A DNA stretch of 10,664 nt, from IMG/VR virus record IMGVR_UViG_2675903575_000010, positions 1 through 10,664 of that record. One strand, given 5' to 3'. The stretch comes from a virus (Duplodnaviria; Heunggongvirae; Uroviricota; Caudoviricetes). Numbering within the stretch: position 1 is the first letter of the stretch; every line of letters begins with the position of its first letter. Under the pieces are notes generated by a model that was not told the origin of the DNA, did no database searches, and worked only from the letters and a program-made list of their open reading frames with translations. The position numbers and the translations under genes were made by a program. Below are positions 1,669-1,704 of the stretch, piece by piece.

Positions 1669-1704
1669 AACAGTGGATACCGTTTTAAAACGGTGGGTAC
1701 TGTT
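1669..1704. promoter_or_regulatory. Dyad-symmetric element with perfect 14-bp palindrome CCGTTTTAAAACGG (1680-1693) and outer arms AACAGT/ACTGTT; candidate operator upstream of alpA
   Basis: Read directly: AACAGTGGATACCGTTTTAAAACGGTGGGTACTGTT. It sits about 70 bp upstream of the alpA start. Confidence 0.4.

Follow-up and report, generated by a model that had tools for sequence, protein, structure and literature searches.

The region upstream of alpA in a capsid-forming phage-inducible chromosomal island (cf-PICI) of Escherichia coli holds a conserved inverted-repeat element that is probably bound by a protein and probably regulatory. The island was studied through positions 1 to 10,664 of IMG/VR virus record IMGVR_UViG_2675903575_000010 (Caudoviricetes), and this whole stretch of 10,664 nucleotides is referred to here as the window. 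The element is a 40-bp dyad situated 65-105 bp 5' of the alpA start codon (1772), between the terminator of a small gene, orf80, and the alpA-proximal region. It consists of two abutting 20-bp units of the form AAAACNGT-N4-ACNGTTTT. The tentative reading offered here, which is rated a little short of probable, is that the dyad would be a composite operator that gates alpA, most likely with Orf80 as the protein bound to it. The element appears to be undescribed, and in the literature searched neither an AlpA site nor an operator at an alpA promoter turned up.

The Dyad and Its Conservation

The original prediction for this DNA drew attention to a dyad at positions 1669-1704, which read AACAGTGGATACCGTTTTAAAACGGTGGGTACTGTT, and to the perfect 14-bp palindrome within it. 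Sequence, coordinates and palindrome are all correct (Table 1). Extended to 1666-1707, the dyad has a complementarity of 81%. Its repeating element is an 8-bp half-site, AC.GTTTT or the complement, and four of these (HS1 to HS4) make up the two units. The window has only five such 8-mers and four of them sit in the dyad. Four half-sites within 41 bp is not what composition produces, as none of 2000 shuffles exceeded two, and a scan of the window at up to 5 mismatches in 20 found no unit-like site besides the two units of the dyad.

The palindrome taken alone is at chance level, because about half of all windows of this size hold one: perfect 14-bp palindromes occur on average 0.75 times per dinucleotide-shuffled window, and 52% of the shuffles have at least one. 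Perhaps, then, the palindrome is a functionless chance feature? Its expected frequency would allow this. However, the array is far more conserved than neighboring neutral sites, its four half-sites cluster and it recurs across genera, so that an accident is scarcely credible. The palindrome is the seam between the two units and not a conserved functional core. Its center is imperfect (CCGTTTAAAAACGG) in the Nissle, O157, and O111 clades, it is altered in loci L133 and L134, and it is absent in L117 and L132. These last two carry an exact 20-bp deletion of unit 1 (the equivalent of 1667-1686), and in L117 unit 2 is left and alpA is intact. The alpA gene of L132 also has a premature stop.

Relatives came from three sources: BLAST searches of E. 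coli genomes, a scan of IMG/VR for the exact pattern, and an AlpA-based search that is independent of the motif (56 loci). In the pattern scan, 49 of 74 matches have an alpA homologue that starts exactly 93 bp downstream. The other 25, from unrelated metagenome contigs without alpA, are roughly the number that chance would supply on a rough estimate. The AlpA-based set and the genome loci together (58 loci) reduce to 23 distinct upstream sequences. HS3 and HS4, along with the T that comes next, are invariant in all 23. HS2 is ACCGTTT(T/A), with one ACAGTTTA variant, and HS1 is loose (CAG, CGG, CTG, CGT, CGA, or TGG). The 4-bp spacers differ in sequence among the relatives and the spacing is fixed in all variants, as is the distance of 93 bp from ACCGTTT to the alpA start codon. 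A fourth clade, found at another tRNA site (L200), keeps HS2-HS4 though the sequence 5' of its dyad is unrelated.

Between clades, HS2-HS4 are identical at 24-25 of 25 positions and the linker after HS4 at 3-6 of 15. For the window and the Nissle types the values are 24/25 and 6/15, and third codon positions agree at 25/58 (43%) in orf80 and 42/68 (62%) in alpA. From these identities, the neutral probability of the HS2-HS4 match is estimated by the author at about 1e-4 or less. The dyad is conserved above the neutral rate and has the half-sites and the fixed spacing of an inverted-repeat operator.

Unit-like sites are also found in other genera. The spacer between the Orf80-family gene and alpA in Xenorhabdus has TTATTGGT-GGGT-ACCGTTTT, which has 14 consecutive nucleotides in common with E. 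coli variants, and an inverted AAAACTGT; these two are the only AC.GT(A/T)T(A/T) 8-mers in 6.7 kb. The corresponding Providencia spacer has the inverted pair AGTGGGTGC / AGTGGGTAC, which is unit-like as AATAGT-GGGT-ACTTTAAT. For scale, GTGGGTAC occurs once in 90 kb of background DNA. Both sites are single units. In Gilliamella, ACTGTAT occurs four times in 8.7 kb, always flanking the family gene and in three cases overlapping its TATAAT. These cross-genus matches tie the unit to the int-Orf80-alpA neighborhood across genera. Judging from the sequences compared, the functional module is the 20-bp unit and not the 14-bp seam, because unit 1 has a natural exact deletion and the Xenorhabdus and Providencia sites are single units.

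Orf80 as the Candidate Regulator

Which protein might bind the dyad? The candidate favored here is encoded next to it. In window and Nissle types, 42 of 58 orf80 codons differ, 26 of them synonymously and 16 non-synonymously, and orf80 is a real gene under purifying selection. RefSeq places its start at ATG 1416 (61 aa). The 80-aa form is favored by a conserved GLQLALM at the N-terminus and by the strong Shine-Dalgarno (SD) sequence before GTG 1359. Every dyad-bearing island has orf80. The AlpA islands without orf80, which are the third clade described below, EcCICFT073, L141, L143, and L144, are all without the dyad.

A word-based search found orf80 only in E. coli. An exhaustive profile search recovered 610 representative proteins at E <= 1e-3, most of them 190-280 aa long, and Orf80 is a stand-alone version of their C-terminal domain (60-70 residues). 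The family pattern is SEGLxL..FWSTYDPE..TAPxKxEV..YL...G.S.NLA.AID..LRP...GRP(R/K)K, and no Pfam, NCBIfam, or PHROG model exists for it. The family gene lies between int and alpA in all three of the other genera with a readable context, namely Gilliamella, Xenorhabdus bovienii, and Providencia heimbachae. In an AlphaFold2 model (predicted local distance difference test score 77), Orf80 forms three helices, and its basic tail, GGRPKKWKR, is disordered; NLAxSIDKV is the putative recognition helix. We infer that Orf80 binds DNA rather than recognize it from the fold, because fold searches with this model returned non-specific three-helix matches only. Orf80 was also considered as a truncated AlpA paralogue and this was rejected (no BLASTP match; hhalign probability 1%).

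A separate observation concerns a 90-aa protein (P0013) from an entry labeled Cooperia oncophora, in which the N-terminal half of Orf80 is fused to the C-terminal two-thirds of AlpA. Evidently the nematode assembly is contaminated with E. coli DNA, in which the fusion arose either by a deletion across the dyad or as an assembly artefact.

Candidate alpA Promoters and Probable AlpA Sites

A consensus scan of 1200-2100 found no sigma-70 promoter, which fits an alpA gene under tight control. Two -10 candidates can be proposed and both fail that scan. The first is the GATAAA that abuts the dyad; four of four clades keep [G/T]ATAAA, including where the sequence farther 5' of it is unrelated. The second is TACCGT (1725-1730), the only conserved TAnnnT hexamer, which lies inside the invariant box TTTACCGTATTT. 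If the first is used, the dyad would cover about -8 to +33. If the second is used, the centers of unit 2 and unit 1 would fall near -41 and -61, respectively. In both cases the dyad would overlap the region contacted by RNA polymerase.

Could AlpA itself act at the dyad? A motif that fits AlpA better lies nearer to the gene. Two direct repeats, CACCGGAAT and CGCCGGATT, place ACCGGA(A/T) 24 and 34 bp upstream of the alpA start, and the whole CACCGGAATAC(G/A)CCGGATT (1737-1755) is invariant among relatives. In L005 and L138, a 10-bp duplication of CACCGGAATA (the equivalent of 1737-1746) results in three phased repeats. ACCGGA(A/T) direct repeats are found again in the attL arm, which flanks the window on the left (L001 7791-8001), with exact 10-bp phasing and on the same strand as the alpA-proximal pair. 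Close to the core there are 3-4 copies, with additional ones by the arm sites, and they occur only in islands of the dyad/orf80 type. Integrase arm-type sites, TAG(C/T)TA(C/T)ACG, are present in all clades (five in attL, two near attR). AlpA probably acts at the ACCGGA(A/T) repeats, at 1737-1755 and in attL, rather than at the dyad, because phased direct repeats at att and promoter typify the excisionase-type regulators, a class that includes AlpA. This motif is probably the better-fitting AlpA candidate, which does not prove that AlpA ignores the dyad. A metagenomic island with a 52%-identical AlpA and neither dyad nor orf80 keeps GCCGGAATACGCCGGA upstream of alpA, and L144 keeps CCGGAATACGCCGGA without a dyad. 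A lambda operator-like TATCACCG at 1733-1740 was dismissed, as it is not conserved in relatives.

The original prediction suggested, as one example, that the dyad could be an autoregulatory site of AlpA, which would also act at CCGTTTT repeats near cos to switch on the capsid operon. The AlpA homologue of P4, Vis, is said to act at its own promoter and at a late promoter. AlpA of EcCICFT073 activates its own promoter, and alpA is helper-induced there (PMC6092414). In addition, the dyad would be placed as a class I/II activator site if TACCGT were the -10, and the ACCGGA repeats are very near the SD sequence, an odd place for an activator site. However, EcCICFT073 has a different AlpA allele and no dyad. 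The third clade also argues against AlpA as the dyad-binding protein. It has a homologous integrase of the same type, the same arm sites and att site, and an AlpA that is 73% identical (68-76% for the dyad-bearing clades), yet it has no dyad, no orf80, and no ACCGGA(A/T) repeats. Furthermore, the AC.GTTTT half-site is absent from attL (L001 7791-8001) and attR (L001 ~19000-19200), whereas ACCGGA(A/T) is common to attL and the alpA-proximal region; and the dyad is built of inverted repeats, not phased direct ones. The late repeats offer no help, since their CCG is not conserved, the 7-mer is at background frequency, and they travel with cosN (see below). AlpA autoregulation through the dyad is thus an unlikely explanation. 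What survives of the original prediction is a conserved, probably protein-bound dyad in the alpA control region; a single AlpA protein common to dyad and cos repeats is unsupported.

The third clade (L088-L091) occupies the same tRNA-Pro site and has an AlpA of 63 aa. In front of its alpA lies a near-consensus promoter (TTGACT-N17-TATTCT), and this implies that the gene is controlled quite differently.

A Proposed Mechanism

AlpA is the activator of the island cycle in Gram-negative PICIs, where alpA transcription depends on the helper phage through an unidentified inducer and no repressor is known (PMC6092414). How a helper switches on alpA in these islands is an acknowledged open question (PMC6092414). 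In the mechanism proposed here, Orf80 would be made constitutively, which is probable because its gene has its own consensus -10 and a strong SD sequence, and would act as a repressor at sites that overlap a weak alpA promoter. The dyad would in this way gate alpA, whose expression starts satellite excision and the replication cycle. A helper phage would relieve Orf80 repression, directly or indirectly, and AlpA would then act at its own ACCGGA repeats and at attL.

Several points weigh against this mechanism. The two -10 candidates would impose opposite geometries: the one at 1662-1667 implies repression, and the one at 1725-1730 allows either repression at the -35 or class II activation. EcCICFT073 has neither orf80 nor the dyad, and therefore the module cannot be a general induction mechanism. 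Gilliamella has no compact dyad upstream of alpA. As orf80 adjoins the dyad, part of their co-occurrence is linkage. Nor does synteny by itself point to Orf80 in particular, since the other genera have conserved AlpA and Int as well. Finally, the dyad can also form a hairpin (-17.4 kcal/mol, z -2.45) with U5 after it.

What if the dyad acts as RNA? It could then be a back-up intrinsic terminator or attenuator that insulates alpA from orf80 read-through. Along with the fold itself, a terminator scan flags 1678-1695, several changes are G-U-compatible on the + strand, 95.5% of cells are paired, and the distant island L144 has a different 14-bp palindrome and a T run at a similar position. However, a canonical terminator (-14.3 kcal/mol) already exists 30 bp upstream. 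The stem is interrupted by a 2x2 internal loop and consists mostly of A-U pairs in its outer part, so that forming it consumes the U tract; the energy of -17.4 kcal/mol is reached only when the A tract pairs with the U tract and is -11.9 otherwise. Pairing is barely above the 93.5% of shuffles. Changes in HS1 and HS2 are uncompensated in the invariant HS3 and HS4, with one pair showing a double change. In five lineages with such uncompensated changes the hairpin energy is -8 or -9, and in the unit 1 deletion variant with an intact alpA it is -2 kcal/mol. The single units of Xenorhabdus and Providencia also speak against a hairpin. An Rfam scan of the window found no immunity RNA of the C4/CI type and no match at the dyad. 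A role as RNA is very unlikely.

Another explanation is that a helper-phage factor (the PICI inducer) or a host DNA-binding protein targets the dyad and activates alpA. This would agree with the helper dependence of alpA and its unidentified inducer noted above, and with the lack of a consensus promoter. It would also agree with the finding that helper range differs between islands with different alpA-upstream modules, the helpers being lambda and phi80 for EcCICFT073 and HK106 and HK446 for EcCIEDL933 (bioRxiv 10.1101/2022.09.08.507074). However, HK106, a helper of the EcCIEDL933 type, has no paired half-sites, and its 24 single half-sites are a chance number (20 expected). A BLAST search of the dyad against 50,697 phage genomes gave no match, where matches under about 19 nt would be missed. 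No consensus for CRP, IHF, Ogr/Delta (TGT-N12-ACA), or the Pseudomonas aeruginosa AlpA element was found, and the site is conserved in Xenorhabdus and Providencia islands that presumably use other helpers. The probability that a helper or host factor is the binding protein is therefore rated as low. The O157 locus L003 may correspond to EcCIEDL933. Searches with AlpA matched only Rhizobium phages (tblastn against phage genomes) and, in contigs of one genome per species, nothing closer than remote, unrelated AlpA-like genes from Acidobacteria, Alcanivorax, and similar taxa.

To return to Orf80 as the binding protein, a broader proposal can be made, although it is doubtful. Orf80 together with the full-length proteins of its family (about 190-280 aa, 610 representative clusters) might be a missing master regulator of one lineage of Gram-negative phage satellites and P4/PICI-like islands. 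They would be constitutive, bind units of the AAAACNGT-N4-ACNGTTTT type before alpA, and silence the island. Helpers would induce by inactivating them, as happens with Stl, and the variable int-alpA module would set helper specificity.

Whatever the fate of that proposal, the comparison defines an operator-like array, a separate candidate AlpA/excisionase motif common to attL, and an uncharacterized family between int and alpA in four genera. This makes the control of alpA in capsid-forming islands of the EcCIEDL933 type testable. It also removes a false lead, in that the repeats adjacent to cos are packaging-site elements and not AlpA sites.

The Cos-Adjacent Repeats

It had been proposed that the dyad shares a CCGTTTT core with direct repeats upstream of the capsid operon. 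CCGTTTT does recur at 6997 and 7073. There are seven copies in the window compared with 2.3 in shuffles, but the palindrome, read on both strands, accounts for two of them. In a motif search of some 100 kb of DNA from E. coli and prophages the rate was 3.6 copies per 10.66 kb, a background frequency, which the original prediction had itself named as an argument against a shared site. Nor is the CCG conserved in the late repeats. Relatives that share block 6876-7110 (86-92% identity) have CTG, CAG, TTA, or TTG instead, and TTTTCACCTG, the conserved core of both repeats, stays. The CCGTTTT match between dyad and cos-adjacent repeats is taken to be a coincidence.

The proposed activation of the late operon by these repeats fares no better. 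In L014, L019, L029, and L030 the block with cosN and the repeats is downstream of terS and inverted, beside a homologue of the open reading frame at 10293, and not before the capsid genes. Because the repeats move with cosN and not with the capsid genes, they do not fit a capsid-operon promoter whose regulator also serves alpA. They are assigned to a packaging-site module and not to the alpA system. The arrangement at 6994-7086 resembles a lambda-type cosB, with repeats downstream of a cosN-like sequence in an island that encodes a small terminase (TerS) of the Nu1 family.

Two similar terminator-like hairpins (GCCGGA-loop-TCCGGC and then a T run) were also seen in this part of the window, one after ssb (6850-6875) and one separating the cos-like block from the capsid operon (7137-7159). 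Transcription that reaches the capsid genes from upstream would have to read through the latter.

Island Context

The window is a cf-PICI, because it has int, alpA, primase, and origin iterons in addition to its own capsid, protease, and small terminase genes. The gene order (Table 1) matches the described cf-PICI layout (bioRxiv 10.1101/2022.09.08.507074). E. coli UTAK-5 carries a chromosomal island with 100% identity to the window, integrated at tRNA-Pro with yejM adjacent. The window stops short of the right end of the island.

Two small minus-strand genes, 2261-2458 (-) and 2516-2695 (-), converge on alpA. One belongs to the YlcI/YnfO (DUF3950) family, and a DUF3950 gene also comes after alpA in the Gilliamella island. 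A minus-strand terminator at 2010-2037 (-), just 3' of the alpA stop, ends both genes.

The iteron ACTGTTCACC / GGTGAACAGT occurs at least nine times, in either orientation, at positions 5884-6125, 3' of the primase gene. Weak miRNA-like Rfam matches at 5926-6105 are these iterons and are spurious. Kinship of the dyad with the iterons (ACTGTTCACC) was considered and discarded, as the likeness is limited to ACNGT. In L200, an insert between the orf75 terminator and the dyad has iteron-like repeats, TATTCACC, TGTTCACC, and TGTTCACC (L200 2780-2815), which resemble both the origin iterons and the cos-adjacent TTTTCACCTG.

Table 1. Positions of genes and sequence elements in the 10,664-nt window.
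Feature	Position	Strand	Remarks
Integrase gene	1-1242		
TATAAT, consensus -10 of presumed orf80 promoter	1290-1295	+	Kept in 4/4 clades despite differing flanks
orf80	1359-1601	+	Candidate dyad-binding regulator; GTG 1359 after SD sequence AAGGAG (1345-1350)
Intrinsic terminator after orf80	1606-1636	+	10-bp stem then T7, -14.3 kcal/mol; equivalent in relatives
GATAAA, candidate alpA promoter	1662-1667	+	-10-like, after TG; abuts dyad; TATAAA in Nissle clade
Composite dyad	1667-1706	.	40 bp; two abutting 20-bp units
Unit 1	1667-1686		AAAACAGT-GGAT-ACCGTTTT
Unit 2	1687-1706		AAAACGGT-GGGT-ACTGTTTT
HS1	1667-1674		
HS2	1679-1686		
HS3	1687-1694		
HS4	1699-1706		
Perfect 14-bp palindrome	1680-1693	.	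CCGTTTTAAAACGG; HS2/HS3 junction
Invariant box	1723-1734	+	TTTACCGTATTT; 12/12 identical between clades
Direct repeats, probable AlpA (excisionase-type) sites	1737-1755	+	CACCGGAAT / CGCCGGATT, 10 bp apart
alpA	1772-1978	+	68 aa; winged-helix regulator/excisionase family; Pfam Phage_AlpA PF05930, 4.5e-08; PHROG 'excisionase and transcriptional regulator'
Icd-like and DUF4222 genes			3' of alpA in gene order
D5-type primase gene	4080-5885		
Iteron-rich origin	~5884-6125		
SSB gene	6414-6836		
Lambda-like cosN ('cos A')	6907-6923	+	GGGCGGGAGCATCGCGG; aligns with lambda left end; region 6869-6949
Cos-adjacent repeat 1	6994-7009	+	TTTCCGTTTTCACCTG; in cos-like module 6869-7110
Cos-adjacent repeat 2	7071-7086	+	ATCCGTTTTTCACCTG; in cos-like module 6869-7110
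ClpP-protease/major-capsid fusion gene	7468-9381		
cosN-like copy 2	9444-9460	+	Directly upstream of terS; region 9406-9460
Nu1-family small terminase gene (terS)	9577-10131		36% identical to lambda Nu1, E 1e-35
cosN-like copy 3	10313-10329	-	Inverted; region 10287-10360

Comparison with Known Systems

The R sites of lambda cosB are bound by the small terminase gpNu1. As in lambda, the repeats of the island are found downstream of a lambda-like cosN (GGGCGG...CGCGG), at about 90 and 165 bp, an AT-rich stretch with one IHF-consensus match separates cosN from the repeats, and a Nu1-family TerS is encoded. The repeats do not, however, have the sequence of the R sites, their core being TTTTCACCTG. 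The cosN copy at 9444 is closer to lambda than the cos A copy, and it runs on into 19 nt that match the lambda left end exactly.

Three systems bear on the region upstream of alpA itself. The late promoter PLL of P4, upstream of the alpA homologue vis, is controlled by Delta/Ogr, P2 Cox, and Vis. Both there and in the island, the region upstream of an alpA-family gene would integrate helper and satellite signals, and a dyad-symmetric site lies upstream of a weak promoter. However, the Ogr/Delta site TGT-N12-ACA was not found in 1560-1775, the helpers are lambdoid, and another motif and protein family are concerned. The P. aeruginosa AlpA antiterminator uses an element, GGGACG-N5-GGTA, between -35 and -10 (PMC7969949, PMC9371919). 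It belongs to the same family (Phage_AlpA) and its site is likewise embedded in a promoter, but the island has no match to that element in the window at up to one mismatch, or near alpA at up to two, and the dyad is larger and symmetric. Apl of phage 186 binds direct repeats one helical turn apart at att and promoters (PMC7498355). The ACCGGA(A/T) repeats at 1737-1755 and in attL resemble this arrangement in both spacing and location, whereas the dyad differs from Apl sites in that it consists of inverted repeats and does not occur in the att arms.

The Stl repressor of Staphylococcus aureus pathogenicity islands (SaPIs) and other Gram-positive PICIs, with its operators in the stl-str region, is a close parallel to the proposed role of Orf80. 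The differences are clear. Orf80 has no detectable homology to Stl, its gene is co-directional with alpA and not divergent, and it would control the gene of an activator. Moreover, Gram-negative PICIs have no described repressor (PMC6092414), and for Orf80 both dyad binding and anti-repression are predictions. The likeness is one of layout: in both, a small island regulator gene is next to int and the presumed operator is in the adjacent intergenic region, before the genes that start the cycle. As with Stl, induction would be expected to be helper-specific.

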